Below are positions 30,407 to 39,230 of a DNA stretch of 64,000 bases, in pieces; the first letter of the stretch is position 1; the number at the start of each line of letters is the position of its first letter. A program made the translations under genes and the position numbers. This DNA is from Terriglobia bacterium (GTDB taxonomy: Bacteria; Acidobacteriota; Terriglobia; 2-12-FULL-54-10). The stretch lies in assembly GCA_963666975.2 (NCBI GenBank), contig CAXVYR010000003.1, positions 928,001-992,000 on the forward strand. Direction: 5' to 3'. The notes beneath the pieces are model-generated. The model had not been told where the DNA came from, searched no databases, and saw only the letters and a program-made list of their open reading frames with translations.

Positions 30407-31366
30407 TTATCTTTCTTCTGCAGACCGTGAACTGATGACCCGACGCGACTCGCCGCTTCCCGGAAGAAAAGGTCCCCAGTCGCCGCCTCTGAGGCCGGGC
30501 ACCTTGGGCGACGTTTCGATCTGAAGAGTCTTTCGTCCCGAAGAGAACGTCGCCATCTGCCGAAGCCGGTAGTGCGTTCGCTCGGCGTCCATATTGCTGC
30601 TTGCTTCCTCCAGAGCTTGGTCGATGGACTGGATTCCGTCAAACTCATGGATTCCGATGCTCAGGCTTAGCCTAAAACCCGGCAAAGGAGAATTCTCGAC
30701 AGAGGCGATGACCTCGTTCCATTCTGTTACTCGTTGTTGAATGCGCTGCTTCACCAACTCTCCGCCGGGCTCTTTGGTATTTTGCAAAGCCACCAGAAAC
30801 TCATCCCCGCCCAGGCGGACTACATAGTCCGAGCAGCGGATCCATTCCTTGACGAGCCCCCCGACTTCAGCCAAAACCAAATCACCATAGAGGTGGCCAA
30901 AATGCGTATTGAGTTGTTTGAAGTTATTCACATCGATATACAAAAAAACCAGGGTGCCGCTCCCGCGTTGCACGCTCTGGATTGCCTCGCTAAGGGCCCC
31001 GTCCAAGGCGGAACGATTGAAGACTTGAGTGAGAGGATCGGTAAATAACCGTATGCCGGCAACCTCGCATCTCCATGCCTCCATGATGGAGTTAAAACTG
31101 AGAGACAGAATCTGATTACATTTATGGATGAGGTAAATGCCGAACAGCAGAATAAGCGTCAGCAGGCCCAGAAGAAGCTGCGGCGTCGCCGGCGTATAAC
31201 CCGCGCGGAGACTCGTGAATGCGCCTGGAAAGGTGATGGCGAAAAACCCTGCAAACAAGATTCCAACCGTCGCAAAGAAAAAAATCCCCAGCTCCCGCTC
31301 CCGCCTCTCAACCGGCGATAACTGCCGTCTGAGTTGATTTGAAAATCGTTGCAACTCTACCCGCAT
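30407..31366 (-). CDS. membrane-anchored diguanylate cyclase (GGDEF)
   Basis: two TM helices; DPLT.VFNR, D.NNFKQLN..FGH.YGD, RLGGDEF, SLSIG. Confidence 0.88.
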   Translation of the reverse strand: MRVELQRFSNQLRRQLSPVERRERELGIFFFATVGILFAGFFAITFPGAFTSLRAGYTPATPQLLLGLLTLILLFGIYLIHKCNQILSLSFNSIMEAWRCEVAGIRLFTDPLTQVFNRSALDGALSEAIQSVQRGSGTLVFLYIDVNNFKQLNTHFGHLYGDLVLAEVGGLVKEWIRCSDYVVRLGGDEFLVALQNTKEPGGELVKQRIQQRVTEWNEVIASVENSPLPGFRLSLSIGIHEFDGIQSIDQALEEASSNMDAERTHYRLRQMATFSSGRKTLQIETSPKVPGLRGGDWGPFLPGSGESRRVISSRSAEER

Positions 31367-31692
31367 GTATACCTTCCTTCTTGACTTGGCCGAACCTCCA
31401 CTTCTCCAGGGTATGGCAGCGGAGCGATGGAGAAAATAGCTCAAAGGTAACTTTATTTCAGCACTTTTGTACTGCGGTTATGCTGCCGTCCGATCCCGGT
31501 AAAACTCAAAAAAGCACGGGAGCAGGAAACGAGCCGCCTCTGGAACCTGGGGACCGGCCTTTCCCAGCGGAACGGCCGAGCAGGCGAAAATTCTCTATTA
31601 GGATTTCCGGTAGCAGGTCAACCTGGGTTTTGTTGGAGGAAAAAGAAAGCCGTCCGCGCACCTGGCCACTGTCGAGTCTGTTCGGTGGTTTA

Positions 31693-33255
31693 TTATTTTC
31701 CGAAGAGGCCGGTGAGACCCTTGATGAGGTCCGCTGGGCTCTGCGGCTTGGTCTGGCCCTCTTGATCCAAGCCCTGTTGCCCGGTCGCCCCGCCCAGAAG
31801 GTTTTGCAATCCGCTCTGCTGCCCCGAACCTCCAGCGGATTTTATTTTGAAGTTCGGGTTTTCGAGCGTTCCGCTCAAGGTAAAAGGGAGCGTCATTTTT
31901 CCGTCGGCAAAGGAGGCGCCGGCAAGAGTGGCCACCAGGCTGGTCACCAGGTTGTCTCCAGCGGCCACAGTGGCCACGCCCTCATAGTCCAGCCTGCCCT
32001 CCCCCGCCAGGGCTACGCTTCCTGAGCCCTCCACATCGACGCCGTTGCCCACGATAGTCAGCTGCTGGGTGGCAATCGTCTGATTGGCGATGTTTAAATC
32101 CGCCGAGATGGATGAAAACGATGAAGGGTCGCCCGACGCCGAGCCGAGGTTTGAAAAGCGGGCAAGTGTCATCATGTTCTTATTCAGTTGCAGGCTGGGC
32201 AGCTCGCCGTCGCGGATGCTCATTTGGCCCTCGCCGATCATGCCCGCCAGAGGTTTCGCTGGGTTGGTAATCGCACCCGAAAGATCAATGTGCCCCTCCA
32301 TTGTTCCCGTCATCTTCCCGCGCGCGTCAGGAAACGTTTCGAGCAGGCGGGCCACGTCTACACCGCTCATTTGCGCCTCGACGTCGTAGCTCGGGTTCCT
32401 GCCCGCGAAGTGGAAAGCAAGGTTTCCGGAAGCTTGGCCTTCATACAGGTCAAAGTTCAGATCATCGAAGTACACTTGCTTGGGGAAGAGCCGCAGTTGG
32501 GTCCTCACCGAAGTCACCTCAAACTCTCCGAAGAGGAGCGATTCCGCCCGGAACGTTCCATGGGCCGCTGGTTCCGGCTCATTGGTTTGAGCGTAGGCAA
32601 GCGGCGCTCCCAGAAAGCTGTGGGAAGGTCTCGAGGACGGGCTCACATCCGGCGGCAAGGATGCCGACGTGGCCCCCGTGAAAGCATTCAGGTCCACATG
32701 CTCCAGCTCGCTTTCCACTGCGTGGGCTTCAAAGTAGTTGGGGCCTGGCTCGCCGGAGCGGAGCAGCCGCGCCGCCGTCAGTTCCCCGCCCGTGATCGTT
32801 ACTCTCGAAATCGTACCCAGCACAAACGCCGGCGGTTCACTGGCCGGGGCCTGGGGTTTCGGCGGATTCTCAAAATTCCACTTCCCGCGAGCGCCCGAAT
32901 ACAGACGGATGACCGGCTCGCTGACTTCCAGCGATTGGATGATTACCTGACGGTTCCACAGCGCCCGAGCGTCCACTTCCGCATATATCCGTCTGGCCTG
33001 GATCATGTGCCCCTCGGGAAAGCCGGAGGGATTTCCCAGCATAAAGTCGTCTACGCGGATCGAGAGTGTGGGAAACAGCGTTAGGGTCAGGCGTCCGATC
33101 TCTGCCGGCTTGCCGGTTTGCTCCTGGATGATGGCCACAACCTGGGGGCGGTAACGGTCCACATCCACCAGTATGGGGACGGCAATGATAAGCGCCACCA
33201 GAAGAACCACCAAAAAAACAACACCGCCGAGCGCGATCTTTTTGCCTCTGGACAT
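31693..33255 (-). CDS. AsmA-family protein
   Basis: N-terminal TM then D.DRYRP.V...I...TG; G.WNF; C-terminal LPF.LSGTLENP. Confidence 0.88.
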   Translation of the reverse strand: MSRGKKIALGGVVFLVVLLVALIIAVPILVDVDRYRPQVVAIIQEQTGKPAEIGRLTLTLFPTLSIRVDDFMLGNPSGFPEGHMIQARRIYAEVDARALWNRQVIIQSLEVSEPVIRLYSGARGKWNFENPPKPQAPASEPPAFVLGTISRVTITGGELTAARLLRSGEPGPNYFEAHAVESELEHVDLNAFTGATSASLPPDVSPSSRPSHSFLGAPLAYAQTNEPEPAAHGTFRAESLLFGEFEVTSVRTQLRLFPKQVYFDDLNFDLYEGQASGNLAFHFAGRNPSYDVEAQMSGVDVARLLETFPDARGKMTGTMEGHIDLSGAITNPAKPLAGMIGEGQMSIRDGELPSLQLNKNMMTLARFSNLGSASGDPSSFSSISADLNIANQTIATQQLTIVGNGVDVEGSGSVALAGEGRLDYEGVATVAAGDNLVTSLVATLAGASFADGKMTLPFTLSGTLENPNFKIKSAGGSGQQSGLQNLLGGATGQQGLDQEGQTKPQSPADLIKGLTGLFGK

Positions 33256-33929
33256 GGCTGCCTCCTCCCGAGTCCGGGCGCGGCTGATTTCCACCGTCGC
33301 GACTTTATTTCCACCTGCTTGGGGCTCTCCCCGCCCGGCTATTTATTGAACATTTCATAATATAGTGACATTTCCACAGGCTTCAAAAGCCCTATAGAAG
33401 GCCGCCCAGCGAATCGAATGTTAAGGCATTCTATGGCACCAGCCAAAACGCAGTGGATCGCCGTTTCGATCTATGTACTCGTGGCCACTAGCCTTTACCA
33501 AATTATTCTCAATGTTACTCTTTTCGAGAAAGTACCCATTTTACAGGCCCTCAGACGATTTAGTCAGAAATATCGAGTTTTAACCGGACAGCAATGATAT
33601 TATGTAAACCTCAATAATATCAATATGGTGTACTCCGAACCGTACGCGAACACGCCGCCAAGCCGGATTCTATCCCGGATTCTATCATAGATATCTGCCA
33701 TGCCGCGGCGTTGAGTCTTGGCAAGCTACCCTACAGTTACCTGTTCAAATTCGAGCATTTCTCCCGATAGTGTATAGGTGGAATGTAGCGCCGCCATCCC
33801 TCGGCTGACTCGGGGCAGGCTCTGGCGGCCCAATGAGTCAGCGAAGACGCTGGCGCTACGTGACTGCCGGAACTCTATACCTACGGGAGAAATGCTGTAG
33901 GCAGGGTTAATACATCGAAGGAAAAAGCC

Positions 33930-34015
33930 GGGGATATTGATGGAATGCGATGTGCTCCGCAGCCAGTGACCGGTGCCACGAAACGGAGCACAAGCATGCC
34001 GCTCAAGTATTCCCC
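33930..34015. other. long imperfect intergenic hairpin (candidate structured RNA)
   Basis: GGGGATATTGA..TGTGCTCCG pairs with CGGAGCACA..TCAAGTATTCCCC. Confidence 0.45.
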
Positions 34016-34024
34016 CTTTATGAA

Positions 34025-34069
34025 AACTGAGGACACGGGGACGGCGCGCTACCCGTCCCCACTGTGCCC
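34025..34069 (-). terminator. probable terminator hairpin after the beta-propeller gene
   Basis: GGGGACGG/CCGTCCCC stem, short T-run a few nt downstream on the minus strand. Confidence 0.45.
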
Positions 34070-34089
34070 AAGTCACACGCAATTCCCCC

Positions 34090-36337
34090 TCAGAAAAGCT
34101 CTGGGAAGTAGAAGGTCATTACGGCATTCAATCGCTTGTCGCTGACAATCAGACTTTTGTTCTTGGGGTCCAGCGTGACCCCCGCGAGGCATTTGCAAGA
34201 CCCCATTCGGGCCTCCGATCTTCCACCGGGGTGGTCGAGGAGCCGCAACCGCAACATCGCCGTTGTCATGGATGCTCCAGACACCGACATAGGCGATGTC
34301 AGAGACCAAGCCTCCCTGCCCTCGGTCACTGGCAATGATCCATCCTTTCGGCGGATAAACGGTAAAAGGACCACCCAGCCTGCGGAACCCGCTCTTGGGT
34401 CCCCCAATGATGGCCTTCGGCTTTACATTGCCTTGGTCCGTGCGGTTGAAAATGAGGAAACGGGCGCCGCCCCTGCCTCCTCCGCCGACGACGACGACGT
34501 TGTTCACCGGGTCCACCGCGACAGCGCCCGCTCCCAACTGGGTGTCAGGACCTTCAATCGTGCGGATCGGCGCTACGTTGCCGTTCCCTTCCTTCGGATA
34601 GACGAGCAATACATTGCCTTCTGGGACATAGATTTCATTGTTTACGGGGTCAACCGCCAATCTGTCGGGAGCCACCAGTCGCGTATTCGAGCCCTGGATC
34701 ACCCGAACCGGCGCTTCCTCGCCATTCGCGTCGCCTCGAAAAGTGAGAATAGCCTGTCCAAACTGCTGCGGCACTATGAATTCGTCATGAACCTCGTCGT
34801 AGGCGATAGCGTGCATCGTCCGCCCCAGCATGGTCTTCTGCCCTTCCAGTTTCCGGATCGGCTGCGCTGATCCATCCGCCATCCTGGCGAAGGTCGCAAT
34901 CTGCGGATGTGCCACTCAGTTGGGCACCAGAATCTCTTCCCGCTTGCTGTCATACGCTACCGGATGCGGATTCCCAATCCCCAGCGCCTGCTCCCCCAGC
35001 GGTCCGCTGCGAATCACCCGCAACGGGGCGGTGTCGCCGGAAGCGTCCCGCTTGTAGACCGTCGCCGCGTGGTTGCCGAAGTTCGCTACCCACAATTCAT
35101 CGTTCTTCAGATCCACGAAGACTCCGGTCGGGTTCTTAATCATGGTGCTCGAACCTTGTAAAATCCGCTTCGGGGCCACGTCTCCGCTGGCCAAAGAGTC
35201 GAACACGATGATGGAGTTCTCCATGTCGTTGGCGACGTACAACTCCTCGCGCTCCTGGTCCAGGTAAATATGCGCCGGCCAGTTCATTTGCGTCTTGGGG
35301 CCTTGAATGACCCGCAACGGAGGAGTATCTCCGCTGGCCTTCAACGGGTAGACGCTGATGGAGGGCGGCAAATGCTGCCCGGAGCCGGGCACTGCGCTGG
35401 ATCTCTCCAGCGGCCAAATCCGCTTTTCTTCTCTGCTTCCGAGTTCCTCATTCTGCTGCTGGGGATCGCGCCGGGAGACTGCGCCATAGTTGCTGACGAA
35501 CATCAGTTGGTTTTTGGTGTCCACGGCGATGCCGTGCGGATCGGCGAGCATCGTCCGGTCGCCCTGCAGCAGCCGGATCGGCTCTTCTTCCTCCTCCGCG
35601 TACTTCGGATAGACGACTACCGCGCTGTCATGCTGGATCGTCAGGAACATTTCCTGCGCCTCTTCATCCACGGCGATTCCAAACGTTCCGTGCGGCGTGT
35701 GCAGCGCCCGGTCCGGAGGAACGTTTCCCTTCACCTGCCGGGAGAAGATCACCAGCATGTCCACGGTGTCGTTGTTCACCGCATAGATGTCGCCCGACAT
35801 CGGGTCGATGTACAGGCCGCACTGTAATTCGATCTCCGTCTTCAACCCCGCGATCATCCGCTTCGGTTCCGTCAGCCTGGCTGTCGGAGGGGTGTTGTCC
35901 AGCCGGTCGTACACCAGAATCTGAAATAAATTCTCATCCGTTAACACGACCTCATTGTTGATTGGGTCCACTGCCACCGAGCTGTAGGCCGCATAGTCAT
36001 CCCGAATCATCCGCACGGGCGCCCGCTTCTCCACCTCCGCCTGGTTGGCCTCGTCTGGCATCCCCGGTCGCGAATCTTGCCGCTGGACCGCGGCCATGAG
36101 GGTGCTGGAGGCGCTGGCAGGCACCCACTGGCACATTTCTCCATCCATTTCCGGATAGGCCATTTCCGGATAGGGCTGAATCGACACGAGCTGAGCCCGG
36201 CCTGTAGGCTTTCGCCCGAACACAGTCTCTGCCGTGTCAATCTCCTGGCTGGAAACTACAAACGCCGCCGCGATGCCTATCATTATTAAAACCGCAACAA
36301 GCCCCGCCTTCCCCCGAACAGGCTCTGCTCGCTTCAT
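34090..36337 (-). CDS. exported NHL/YncE-like beta-propeller protein, probably one gene with an in-frame TGA (candidate selenocysteine) and a 3' +1 frameshift
   Basis: ORFs 34916..36337 and 34073..34915 abut in the same frame; blade repeat P.R.I.G..T....P.GIAVD....E..V.N runs through both; true C-terminus (VTLDPKNK..FYFPELF) is in another frame after a G5 run at 34179-34183. Confidence 0.75.
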
Positions 36338-36628
36338 TGTGCACCAACCCTCTCTTGTGAATTTTCCCGTTCGAAGACCGCAAATACTGCCTGAAAATAA
36401 GCTAGCATGACGACACATTGCTTTGCGAATGAATTATCCTTCTGAAGCCCGTTCTTGGCCTGTTTATAGACTACCCGTGAATTCCCGGCTTGTCCTTGGC
36501 TTTGCGAATTGTGCTAGAATCCTGCCCATCGTGAAACATCTTATTGTTTTTCTTGTTCCTCTTTTGAAGAATCCGAAGGGCCGGACTTTTCGGAAATCTT
36601 CGTCCATCTCCGGGAAGGCGGCCGCGGC

Positions 36629-37421: not shown

Positions 37422-37502
37422 CTCTTCAAAATAAGACACGAAAGCGGATCATCGGTGAACTTTTTCCCTTTCTTGATCTTTCAGCCAATCGAAGGGAGAC
37501 TT

Positions 37503-39230
37503 ATGAGGAGATTGACGCATAATCTAGTTCTCTTTATTGCAACCGCGTTGCTGTGCTTTATCCCTGTGCGCGTTGTGGCGCAGGGAGGGCAGTCCACTCC
37601 TCTAGTGATTGAGGGGGGAACCCTCATTGACGGCAATGGAGGACAAACCGTTCGGGACGTCCTGATCGTCATCCGGGGAAACCGCATTGCGACTGTATCC
37701 CGCAAGGGACAAGCAACCTACCCGGTGGGGGCCCGGGTGCTGCGTGCCGATGGGAAATTCATTATTCCAGGCCTCATAGACTCCCACGTCCACTATCGCG
37801 AATACATGGGCGAAATGTTTCTCGCCTACGGTGTCACAGCCGTCTACGATCTGGGGAACCCCTTCCACTGGCAAACAGCCGTTCGGAAAGGGTTGAACGA
37901 AGGTAATATCCGGGGCCCCCGCTTCTACTTTTGCGGCATAGTGACCCTCCTGCGCGATGGAGAAGACGAAAGCAGAGGCGGCCCTACGATTCGTACGCGG
38001 GACATTGCTTTTATGCGGGGTCCGGAGGATGCCCGGCAGGCCGTCGCCATACTCCGGGAGAAAGCGGACTGCGTGAAGTTGAACGAGTTCATGCAGGAAG
38101 ACATCTTCGCCCCCATCGCGCGGGAGGCGCGCGCAGCCGGCATGGGAGTGATCTCTCACTCGCTGGATACGATGGACTCGGTCAATTGGGGGATCACCGG
38201 CATTGAACACATGACCGGGATTGCGATCTCCACCATTCGTACCCAAGAGGGACGCGCCGCCCTGAAGGAGATGGACATCTCCGCAGGACACAAGAACAGC
38301 TTCCTGTACCAATGGATGGAGCCAGCGTACTTTGACGAACTCATCCAATCCCTGGTCCAGCGAAATGTGTTCATCAATCCGACACTGCACTTTGAGTGGA
38401 AAGCCCTGACAGAACACGCGCGAGAGCACGAGTTGGAAGACGCGCGGCTGCTGAACCATCCCGACCTCCAGTACGTTCCACTCAGCGAGCGGCTGGTCTT
38501 CTTAGGTCAGTACCACTGGGCAGACAACAGATCCCCGGCGGAAAAGGAGCAGTTCCGCCAGGGCCATCGCAAAGTGCAGGAGTTCCTCCGCCGCTTTGTC
38601 CAGGCCGGAGGCAAAATCTATTCCGGCACCGACGCAGCGGCCGCGCTCACACCGGGACTCAGCCTGCACCACGAAATGGAGCTTCTGGTGGATGCGGGCC
38701 TGACTCCCATGCAATCGATCCAAAGCTCCACTCTTTGGGCAGCAGAGATCATTGGATTGCAAGACAAACTGGGCACCATCGAGCCTGGCAAATTCGCGGA
38801 CTTGGTGATTCTCAGCAATAATCCGCTGGAAGATATTCGCAATACAAAGGCTGTTGATCAGGTAATTCGCGGCGGCGAGATCATGGACACGAGCTTCCAC
38901 AGCGACTATCAGTTTCCCTTCCACCTCTACGGGCCGGAGTCCAAGCACCTATATAATCCCCTTCCCGTGCTCGCAGATATCAATCCTCCCCTGTCGCCGC
39001 AGGGAAGCGAAGTCAGGCTGCGCGTGCTCGGCAGCGGGTTCGTGCCCAGCTCCGTGGTAAAGGCCGGCGAGTTGACGATCCCCACGCGCTGGGTCAGCGC
39101 CACGGAACTGGAAGCCACTCTCACCAAAGCTCACACCATGCGCGTGGGGACTTTCCTGATCACAGTCAAGACCCCGCTGCCAGGCGGCGGGGCCACAGAT
39201 CCGCTGGAGTTTTACATCACGTACCCGTGA
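37503..39230 (+). CDS. secreted amidohydrolase with C-terminal IPT/TIG-like domain
   Basis: signal peptide; IIPGLIDSHVH, GTD, GTIEPGKFADLVIL; P.L..I.P..LRVLGSGF..T.WVSATEL.A. Confidence 0.88.
   Translation: MRRLTHNLVLFIATALLCFIPVRVVAQGGQSTPLVIEGGTLIDGNGGQTVRDVLIVIRGNRIATVSRKGQATYPVGARVLRADGKFIIPGLIDSHVHYREYMGEMFLAYGVTAVYDLGNPFHWQTAVRKGLNEGNIRGPRFYFCGIVTLLRDGEDESRGGPTIRTRDIAFMRGPEDARQAVAILREKADCVKLNEFMQEDIFAPIAREARAAGMGVISHSLDTMDSVNWGITGIEHMTGIAISTIRTQEGRAALKEMDISAGHKNSFLYQWMEPAYFDELIQSLVQRNVFINPTLHFEWKALTEHAREHELEDARLLNHPDLQYVPLSERLVFLGQYHWADNRSPAEKEQFRQGHRKVQEFLRRFVQAGGKIYSGTDAAAALTPGLSLHHEMELLVDAGLTPMQSIQSSTLWAAEIIGLQDKLGTIEPGKFADLVILSNNPLEDIRNTKAVDQVIRGGEIMDTSFHSDYQFPFHLYGPESKHLYNPLPVLADINPPLSPQGSEVRLRVLGSGFVPSSVVKAGELTIPTRWVSATELEATLTKAHTMRVGTFLITVKTPLPGGGATDPLEFYITYP

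Follow-up and report, generated by a model that had tools for sequence, protein, structure and literature searches.

The question raised by this locus is whether an in-frame TGA on the minus strand of the window, the whole stretch of 64,000 nucleotides that was analysed, separates two genes or encodes selenocysteine (Sec) inside a single one. The strand reads GTG CCC AAC TGA GTG GCA CAT CCG, with the TGA at window positions 34918-34916, and two open reading frames abut there in the same frame, one of 500 aa (34916..36418, minus strand) and one of 280 aa (34073..34915, minus strand). A preliminary description of this DNA had proposed that the TGA joins these two frames, falls in mid-blade of a beta-propeller, and is followed by a GTG lacking a Shine-Dalgarno sequence, and all three observations are borne out by the sequence and the list of reading frames. 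The uninterrupted translation across the TGA is ...EEILVPN*VAHPQIATFARMADGSAQP..., in which EILVPN* aligns with the previous blade, ELWVANFGNHAATVYKRDASGDTAP, and direct reading of the sequence before the GTG finds no purine-rich stretch of the Shine-Dalgarno type. Alignments with homologues start at about residue 28-36 of the longer frame from the ATG at 36418. The gene and the codon in question are as follows.

34073..36337, minus strand: whole gene in its present reading, starting with the ATG at 36337-36335 (MKRAEPV...), crossing the in-frame TGA and ending at a shifted-frame stop at 34075-34073; 754 codons
34916..34918, minus strand: candidate Sec codon, in-frame TGA, motif ILVPN-U-VAHPQ

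The TGA column among homologues

From the comparison of sequences, the TGA at 34916-34918 on the minus strand is very probably a Sec codon and the two reading frames very probably one gene. Across 46 homologous genes of 13 genomes (the window's and those of 12 relatives), all sharing the motif YD[ST]KRxxILVPN-x-VAHPQ around the column, the codon is TGA in 44 and TGC in two, and this recurrence at one column indicates that the position of the TGA is non-random. Among the best 150 of 254 matches, 142 contain one TGA and no other stop, six a TGA together with another stop, and two, both of them the TGC forms, no TGA. The same column holds TGA in 67 more distinct genes from named MAGs, which brings the number of distinct genes with TGA there to 111 (44 + 67). 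The check put forward at the outset, namely that homologues should carry Cys or TGA at this column and not TAA or TAG, gave that result, both in the DNA (TGA or TGC, with TAA or TAG in none of the homologues compared) and in the public protein homologues P0002-P0121, where the 39 short sequences all stop at ...PN, the position of the TGA, and the 81 of at least 600 aa have Cys in 79, Trp in one and a gap in one. The coding sequence 3' of the TGA is under purifying selection, with a dN/dS of 0.12-0.20 after the TGA against 0.18-0.22 before it in four comparisons. Just two Cys/Sec columns are conserved in the alignment, a Cys in the N-terminal arm (113/116) and the Sec/Cys column itself (116/116).

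The family yields 8 to 33 matches per genome in 11 genomes of one acidobacterial (Terriglobia) family, and in a sample of the phylum at least 2 of 301 genomes were matched at E <= 1e-50, a count that is a lower bound on the range of the family since at most three candidates per genome were scored. By word share alone, 14-31% of sampled sequence words were present in three runs labelled sponge metagenome, and 6% in two metatranscriptome runs.

The hairpin and the selenocysteine machinery

A hairpin TTCGCCA-GGA-TGGCGGA spans the stretch 25-41 nt 3' of the TGA, with G as the first base of its loop, at the place and in the form given by the preliminary description (34891-34875), and a second, smaller hairpin lies before it.

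34875..34891, minus strand: SECIS-like hairpin UUCGCCA-GGA-UGGCGGA, 7-bp stem; the apical GGN (34884-34882) begins 31 nt 3' of the UGA
34895..34905, minus strand: second, short and invariant hairpin CGC-AGAUU-GCG, 3' of the UGA and 5' of the main one; pairs kept in 35-36 of 36 sequences

All seven pairs of the main stem are formed in 35 of the 44 Sec forms and six pairs in the remaining nine; in the 67 extra genes the figures are 52 with seven pairs and 15 with six. The alternative stem CATCCGC/GCGGATG, proposed at the same time, is present in this copy, but reaches 7/7 pairs in only 10 of the 44 homologues, whereas the main stem does so in 35. The hairpin is missing in both TGC forms, which use a CGC codon and retain just 4/7 main-stem pairs each, and this control on Cys-form DNA remains at n=2 genes, since a search of genome contigs for further Cys forms returned TGA forms at all of the best 79 loci. 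A tree of the family leads one to expect at least nine changes from TGA to TGY. Codon choice within the two hairpins is strongly biased: in the main one an AGG codon is used in 43/44 Sec forms and 61/67 extra genes (background 8% of Arg codons in the same genes), in the small one GCG is fixed in 44/44 (background 37%) and CCG in 43/44 (background 53%), and this fixation of synonymous sites is confined to the TGA forms. Two compensatory changes (C-G to U-A and G-C to C-G) are tabulated among the 44 sequences and a third was read in the printed sequence L122; in a formal pair count over 36 sequences, in which the hairpin columns are nearly invariant, 97.5% of the cells were paired, double-sided changes numbered 0, and 500/500 shuffles reached the observed values, so that the hairpin is backed by conservation and codon choice and not by covariation. 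A constraint on the peptide FARLA could account for some of the conservation.

The published bSECIS model comprises an apical loop of 3-9 nt on a stem of 4-16 bp, a G in the first two loop positions, a distance of 16-37 nt from the UGA and an MFE <= -7.5 kcal/mol (PMC13188914, Fig. 2 legend). Compared with these published constraints (PMC13188914), the hairpin agrees in 4/4, with a loop GGA (or AGGAU), a 7-bp stem, a spacing of 31 nt and an MFE of -9.7 to -10.8 kcal/mol. The spacing is towards the long end of the permitted 16-37 nt; selD of the same genome, which has a similar hairpin, GUCCAAA-GGU-UUUGGAC, shows 20 nt. No Rfam family matched 34700-35000 at E <= 10, a result of little weight because Rfam is not known to contain a bacterial SECIS family.

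The genome check for selA, selB, selC and selD, also suggested beforehand, recovered the complete set: selA (466 bits), selB (372 bits, over its cut-off), a selD carrying its own in-frame TGA (...KAAG-U-ASK) and one tRNA-Sec predicted by ARAGORN, the sole tRNA with a UCA anticodon in the genome, whose tRNA-Trp has the normal CCA anticodon. This gene and its orthologues also end at TGA, and UGA is thus still a stop in this organism. A genome-wide scan for in-frame TGA followed by this type of hairpin produced 11 hits in 4.23 Mb, seven of them paralogues of this gene; the non-family hits C4:1382286 and C4:1043243 were rejected as further selenoproteins, since both sit within other genes, in frames that do not code. 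The window's genome yielded no Sec-type formate dehydrogenase, so the propeller family and SelD may sustain the Sec trait there. The TGA/Cys column, the hairpin and the machinery together support the candidate Sec codon as originally proposed. In the corresponding mechanism, with the ribosome positioned at the UGA, SelB carrying Sec-tRNA(Sec) would bind UUCGCCA-GGN-UGGCGRA and insert Sec.

State of this copy and other readings of the UGA

The caveat that the gene carries a 3' frameshift proved real, the window having G5 where the orthologue has G4, and the contigs of four runs agreeing with the window.

34179..34183, minus strand: G5 run, +1 frameshift relative to the orthologues (G4 in L016, from the same genus), 30 codons ahead of the ancestral stop
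34090..34092, minus strand: ancestral-frame stop TGA, after ...FYFPELF
34235..34252, minus strand: 18-nt in-frame insertion (AVAAPR) in the window, lacking in the contigs of 4/4 runs and in the orthologues L015 and L016

The conserved C-terminus ...VTLDPKNKSLIVSDKRLNAVMTFYFPELF* carries on in the +1 frame. As the frameshift is real and present in the contigs of the four runs, the copy may be recently disabled, and a working protein may be absent from it, the last blade being removed; judged from the sequence, the window's copy, with this blade replaced, is a member of the family that has probably been disabled or altered not long ago. A stronger version of this reading, which overlaps with the Sec reading and concerns this copy alone, holds that the TGA is an inherited Sec codon and that the G5 frameshift killed the last blade, making the copy a young pseudogene among at least seven intact paralogues, and its chances appear evenly balanced. 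It agrees with the G5 run against the G4 of the orthologue, which leaves the conserved 29-residue C-terminus in another frame, with the occurrence of the same G5 in the contigs of 4/4 runs from four studies, with the assignment of those 29 residues in the models to strands of blade 12, and with the existence in the genome of a paralogue that has clearly decayed and has lost an internal segment (C4:2003482-2004973). On the other hand, the rest of the reading frame, 718 codons, is undamaged, and a protein shortened in this way could still fold. Over the 87 nt that follow the shift, the copy departs from the G002 orthologue at three sites, each of them silent when read in the ancestral frame, which makes any inactivation very recent; moreover, the four runs are near-identical to the window, with no other letter changed in 2.5 kb, and so represent a single clone, which is no sign that the frameshift has persisted for long. 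Slippage during transcription, or programmed frameshifting, at the G5 run was considered and set aside, five G being short for slippage and the orthologues being in frame with G4.

Turning from the fate of this copy to the codon itself, a UGA decoded as Cys or Trp instead of Sec, by a suppressor tRNA, near-cognate read-through or a changed code, is very improbable. Trp is entered at the column in one public homologue, P0019, which would most simply be a table-4 reading by the gene caller. Precedents for such decoding are on record, PMC5389517 describing tRNA(Sec)-like Cys-tRNAs, possible opal suppressors, in other phyla and irregular allo-tRNAs in Acidobacteria. In this genome, however, the lone UCA-anticodon tRNA is tRNA-Sec by ARAGORN and tRNA-Trp has its normal CCA anticodon, selA, selB and a Sec-type selD are present, UGA terminates these very genes, and the one internal TGA of each gene invariably occupies the Cys column, with the hairpin behind it. 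The reading of the TGA as a true stop, leaving two genes or a family of nonsense-mutated pseudogenes with the hairpin as a by-product of the peptide, would account for the public annotation of the halves as separate proteins of ~470 and ~280 aa and for a pair count without covariation, but its probability is negligible given a break inside a blade, a GTG without a ribosome-binding site, 79 of 81 full-length homologues that continue through with Cys, the same 'nonsense' codon in 111 distinct genes, a dN/dS as low downstream as upstream, and synonymous sites fixed in TGA forms only.

Fold, possible function and comparison with known systems

With the TGA read as Sec, the product had been pictured as one exported protein of about 750 aa with Sec in a blade loop; the single gene and the location of Sec in a blade turn stand, and export is a prediction that has the N-terminal helix as its sole basis.

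36254..36307, minus strand: predicted N-terminal hydrophobic helix (signal anchor or signal peptide) after the basic stretch MKRAEPVRGK; mapped from helix residues 15-32 of an AF2 orthologue model
36131..36133, minus strand: codon for the conserved arm Cys (GEMCQW; flexible N-terminal arm); of 116 aligned homologues, 113 have Cys here and three a gap
35003..36013, minus strand: blades 1-6, predicted first propeller, with a long insert in blade 4; six four-stranded repeats by DSSP of model mb8ac260dd056
34090..35002, minus strand: blades 7-12, predicted second NHL-type six-bladed propeller, the last blade past the frameshift in the ancestral frame

The arm between helix and blades, of ~70 residues, is flexible (pLDDT <50). 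The domain model of blades 7-12 (m8cbd66ed8670; pLDDT 91.2, pTM 0.90) has 23 strands in six repeats, and this C-terminal half is matched best in structure by the NHL domain of TRIM2 (Z 26.6, rmsd 2.5 A over 253 aligned residues), a match that, together with a single PF01436 (NHL) repeat at 23.7 bits against a cut-off of 20, supports the NHL-type fold first suggested. By analogy with this second half, blades 1-6 would also form a closed six-bladed propeller, and the models thus point to twelve blades that are probably arranged as two six-bladed NHL-type propellers. Other searches gave no functional lead: the whole model, compared with the PDB by Foldseek, retrieved generic tandem WD40/YWTD propellers alone (TM ~0.3), a profile search among PDB sequences brought up nothing beyond weak repeats of the NHL, YWTD and lactonase types (E >= 5e-6), and a search of the ESM Atlas nothing but split pieces of the same propeller family.

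In the model, the turn that links strands B and C of blade 7 begins with Sec, and in propellers such turns are on the face that usually binds ligands. A tentative proposal, somewhat less likely to be right than wrong, is that the protein is an extracytoplasmic redox enzyme in which Sec acts as reactive nucleophile and is resolved, via a selenenylsulfide, by the Cys of the arm. A metal site of the type Sec-x-x-His was also considered; the replacement by Gln, in several Cys forms, of the His three residues after Sec weakens this idea and argues against a fixed site. The genomic context suggests no pathway, the neighbours of the window's gene being AsmA-like, GGDEF, amidohydrolase and TPR genes, and clustering of the flanking reading frames at 46 loci revealed no partner gene common to most, amidohydrolase-3 genes flanking nine of the 46 loci and a gene of ~240 aa following one orthologue group in seven. 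More speculatively still, Terriglobia might keep the whole Sec machinery mainly for one expanded family of extracytoplasmic double-propeller enzymes, in which a Sec on the propeller face resolved by an arm Cys would be a new catalytic device and the paralogues would act on different substrates outside the cytoplasm; if this were true, the more than 20 Sec-encoding paralogues of some genomes would exceed every other expansion of a single selenoprotein family known in bacteria. With the TGA read as Sec, these uncultured soil and groundwater Acidobacteriota would stand among the most selenoprotein-rich bacteria. In annotation, gene callers split these genes at the TGA, so that the gene models come in two pieces; many hundreds of public models of this kind, 'hypothetical proteins' of ~470 and ~280 aa, would have to be merged and marked as selenoproteins.

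Among known propellers, the seven-bladed lactonase/YncE proteins (PF10282, NF052280) resemble the family through a PF10282 match of 25.4 bits over residues 373-460 only, whereas the NCBIfam models for YncE and 6-phosphogluconolactonase score 24.7 bits against a cut-off of 400 and 22.7 bits against a cut-off of 370, respectively, and the models obtained here consist of six-bladed and not seven-bladed units; with scores so far below the cut-offs and six-bladed models, the automatic names 'YncE' and 'lactonase' are unsupported. The likeness to NHL propellers (TRIM2, TRIM71 and Brat; peptidyl-alpha-hydroxyglycine alpha-amidating lyase; SOQ1 and NHLRC2; the PknD sensor) is closer, the C-terminal half aligning over 240-263 residues with Z 23-27 and rmsd 2.5-3.1 A, but identity is just 11-20%, the propellers are here in tandem behind a membrane helix, and none of those proteins has Sec or, to our knowledge, a Cys at the equivalent turn. 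The fold shared with them tells nothing about activity.

That no NHL-type propeller selenoprotein had been described, as was thought initially, agrees with the 2026 table of 119 prokaryotic selenoprotein families and subfamilies, which has no propeller, NHL or lactonase entry (PMC13188914 Table 1, whole table), and an NCBIfam scan gave no match to the NF/TIGR models listed there. Relative to PMC13188914 Table 1, the evidence supports an uncatalogued selenoprotein family, one that selenoprotein catalogues, and the predictors trained on them, appear to overlook. A membrane-anchored tandem NHL propeller of 740 residues with an invariant Sec/Cys would broaden known Sec chemistry; the bacterial selenoproteins described so far are nearly all small thioredoxin-like redox proteins or metal enzymes. 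With the genes that have a SECIS within the reading frame, of which E. coli fdhF is the prototype (PMC13188914), the family shares the in-frame UGA, a nearby stem-loop with G-G first in a small apical loop, the existence of Cys homologues and the dependence on selA, selB, selC and selD, all four present in this genome; it differs from them in having no UxxC or CxxU motif, in being a beta-propeller instead of the usual thioredoxin-like fold or molybdopterin enzyme, and in reaching 8 to 33 matches per genome in 11 relatives.

Reading frame and the TGA column

The minus strand of the window reads GTG CCC AAC TGA GTG GCA CAT CCG, with the TGA at 34918-34916, and the two ORFs flanking this codon abut in the same frame:

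34916..36418, minus strand, upstream ORF
34073..34915, minus strand, downstream ORF

Translation across both gives ...YDSKREEILVPN*VAHPQIATFARMADGSAQP..., and the TGA interrupts a blade according to the joined translation and the structural model. The gene start is likely the ATG at 36337 (protein MKRAEPVRGKAGLVAVLIMIGIAAAFVV...), since homologue alignments begin near that point. The preliminary description of this sequence (TGA, abutting ORFs, hairpin) was correct in every detail, including its statement that no SD precedes the GTG, where no ribosome-binding site was found. Comparison of the window copy with four homologues yields dN/dS of 0.12-0.20 downstream of the TGA and 0.18-0.22 upstream; the segment 3' of the TGA is, on sequence evidence, translated.

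The protein was matched in 14 of 41 related genomes searched, including 12 of the 13 of the window's own family (f1), mostly with 8 to 33 matches per f1 genome; one of these 12 genomes and the single match outside f1 are marginal (E = 4.3e-4). Among the best 150 of the 254 matches, 142 contain one TGA alone, six a TGA plus a further stop, and two no stop. In the 46 genes spanning the column of the TGA (nine in the window's genome, 37 spread over 12 relatives), the codon is TGA in 44 and TGC in two, and all 46 share the motif YD[ST]KRxxILVPN-x-V[AGS]HPQ around it. Named genomes, when scanned, contributed another 67 distinct genes with TGA at the column, two further alignments being dropped as spurious matches to other blades; the TGA is not unique to the window's genome. 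Among the best 120 public proteins, the 39 predictions shorter than 600 aa all end in ...PN, exactly at the TGA, and among the other 81 the column holds Cys in 79, a gap in P0022 and Trp in P0019. The latter is a full-length homologue, and its Trp most likely reflects a gene caller reading TGA as Trp under another table. Cys in some homologues and TGA in others is the pattern that had been proposed as a mark of Sec.

Sec (41 rows) and Cys (75 rows) are interspersed on a 116-row FastTree phylogeny, which needs at least 10 changes between them, nine being required by branches with good support. The Cys set carries a bias, since public data predict only Cys forms full-length. The tree leaves out five genes with matches below 600 residues, database proteins below 700 aa, and the predictions P0001, P0122, P0019 and P0022. 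The titles of homologue records, which are depositors' labels and may include contaminated bins, point mostly to MAGs of Acidobacteria, Terriglobia, Bryobacteraceae, Solibacteraceae and Candidatus Sulfopaludibacter, with a few from Binatia, Verrucomicrobiia, Planctomycetota, Luteitalea and Deltaproteobacteria. An even phylum sample gave matches in two of 301 genomes at E <= 1e-50.

The window's copy, its paralogues and neighbours

The window carries GGGGG at 34183-34179 (minus strand) versus GGGG in the orthologue of a relative (G002), and the conserved end ...VTLDPKNKSLIVSDKRLNAVMTFYFPELF-TGA follows the G run in the +1 frame. In four runs, each from a different study, the contigs have the window's letters throughout 33950-36450, the sole difference being the absence of 18 nt at 34235-34252; the frameshift, already raised as a caveat, therefore belongs to the DNA and does not stem from an error of the window's assembly. 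The 18 nt, an in-frame insertion (AVAAPR) also absent from both close orthologues, represent strain variation or else an artefact of assembly. The frameshift takes away the strands of blade 12. The three nucleotides past it that differ from G002 are all synonymous in the old frame, which makes the event a recent one. The window gene is a recently frameshifted paralogue, and the chances that this copy is non-functional are about equal either way. Of the other paralogues in the genome, seven are apparently intact and one is a remnant; the decayed or partial members noted are two:

G000:C4:2003482-2004973, window's genome, internal deletion, TGA and hairpin kept
G000:C1:7741-8129, window's genome, C-terminal fragment near a contig end

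Paralogues are often tandem or clustered on one contig, as at G000:C3:768243-772811 and in the five matches on contig C34 of the relative G008. In all four runs, summed contig depth at 34874-34957 is 72-212 versus about 8-14, owing to many 31-43-nt contigs common to paralogues, where assemblies break; the spike illustrates how the UGA-SECIS block is conserved at the nucleotide level.

Amidohydrolase genes (Amidohydro_1/3, about 600 aa) adjoin the window gene and nine of the 46 family loci, which may reflect a loose functional association or two co-expanded families. The PAS kinase, GGDEF and AsmA neighbours at the window locus show no obvious connection with the selenoprotein.

37455-39230, plus strand, amidohydrolase
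L020, L021, L023, L024, L031, L036 and L037, loci with an amidohydrolase neighbour
G000:C4:2005230-2007212, amidohydrolase elsewhere in the window's genome
23890-27198, plus strand, hybrid PAS histidine kinase with receiver domain
30407-31444, minus strand, GGDEF diguanylate cyclase
31693-33294, minus strand, AsmA-family protein

Protein architecture and predicted role

An AF2 model of P0122, the intact same-genus orthologue (737 aa, Sec at 469; pLDDT 86.3, pTM 0.83), has residues 15-32 in a helix, followed by a disordered arm as far as about residue 100 and by twelve four-stranded blades, blade 12 apparently being completed by the first strand. The C-terminal half modelled alone (pLDDT 91.2, pTM 0.90) superposes best on six-bladed NHL domains, and we infer that the N-terminal half is likewise a closed six-bladed propeller. 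Pfam matches are limited to a single NHL repeat and part of a lactonase model, and scores for the NCBIfam models of YncE and 6PGL fall far short of the cut-offs.

Superpositions on the C-terminal half (structure; Z; rmsd; residues aligned)
TRIM2 NHL; 26.6; 2.5 A; 253
TRIM71 NHL; 26.4; 2.6 A; 250
Brat NHL; 25.6; 2.8 A; 253
PAL; 25.4; 3.0 A; 261
SOQ1 NHL; 25.4; 2.7 A; 263
NHLRC2 NHL; 23.5; 3.1 A; 263

In this model U469 directly follows strand B of blade 7 (463-468), the next strand being 474-479. B-C turns of propellers lie on the ligand-binding face, and this general topology would place Sec there. Only two Cys/Sec columns are conserved across the 116 homologues, the Sec/Cys column (filled in 116/116) and a Cys of the flexible arm (113/116, with three gaps), and for this reason the two residues are proposed as a possible selenenylsulfide redox couple. 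In the Cys form P0054 a twin-arginine-like N-terminus (RREFFGG...) takes the place of the usual membrane helix, which fits a location outside the cytoplasm and hints at export while folded, perhaps with a cofactor.

Sec decoding and standing of the family

The Sec genes sought in the genome are all present: selA (466 bits), selB (372 bits, over its cut-off), selD (350 bits) and a single tRNA-Sec of 98 nt, the sole tRNA with a UCA anticodon. The selD gene (G000:C4:1360322-1361257, locus L010, outside the window) is itself a selenoprotein gene, with an in-frame TGA in KAAG-U-ASK. UGA still terminates in this organism, because family genes themselves end in TGA. Formate dehydrogenase is the most widespread bacterial selenoprotein; a genome-wide search for the Sec type with the alpha-subunit model gave nothing above cut-off and nothing with an in-frame stop.

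Two hairpins follow the UGA:

34905-34895, minus strand, invariant mini-hairpin CGC-AGAUU-GCG, between the UGA and the main stem
34891-34875, minus strand, main hairpin TTCGCCA-GGA-TGGCGGA

The main hairpin, UUCGCC-A-GGN-U-GGCGRA, can form 28-44 nt from the U of the UGA in all 44 TGA forms, with seven pairs in 35 and six in the other nine; the 67 further genes have seven (52) or six (15), and the two TGC forms at most four of seven. The alternative stem of the preliminary description is complete in only 10 of 44. Codon choice is the strongest argument for the hairpin. The Arg codon within it is AGG in 43/44 and 61/67 genes, a triplet making up just 8% of their Arg codons. The Ala codons of the block are GCG in 44/44 and 42/44 (background 37%) and the Pro codon CCG in 43/44 (background 53%); both Cys forms have CGC for Arg and other letters at these synonymous sites. 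A formal count over 36 sequences gave 97.5% pairing versus 32-55% with partners slid; none of the 36 showed changes on both sides of a pair, shuffles were uninformative because the columns barely vary, and compensatory changes number only three in 111 genes. A genome-wide scan for TGA with open frame on either side and an A-GGN-U hairpin returned 11 matches, seven of them paralogues of the window gene; two non-family matches were rejected as selenoproteins, lying in non-coding frames.

The window hairpin conforms to the consensus bSECIS model (Fig. 2 legend, PMC13188914) in all four constraints, with a 3-nt loop, or a 5-nt AGGNU fitting the model's pattern N1-G-[G|U]-N-N2, a 7-bp stem, 31-nt spacing and MFE of -9.7 to -10.8 kcal/mol. 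Table 1 of that paper, a 2026 review of the prokaryotic selenoproteome, covers 119 families and subfamilies and includes no propeller, NHL or lactonase entry, in line with the earlier remark that no described NHL-type propeller selenoprotein was known. Neither BSepDB (PMC13326102) nor deep-Sep (PMC12013277) uses the words propeller, NHL, lactonase or YncE in its main text, and the full-text literature, as far as searches reached, yielded no description of the family. Judged by its sequences, the selenoprotein family is genuine and decoded by the ordinary bacterial mechanism, and it is apparently uncatalogued. The hairpin of selD in the same genome (GUCCAAA-GGU-UUUGGAC, 20 nt past its UGA) is very similar to those of the propeller genes, the A-GGN-U apex being common to both.
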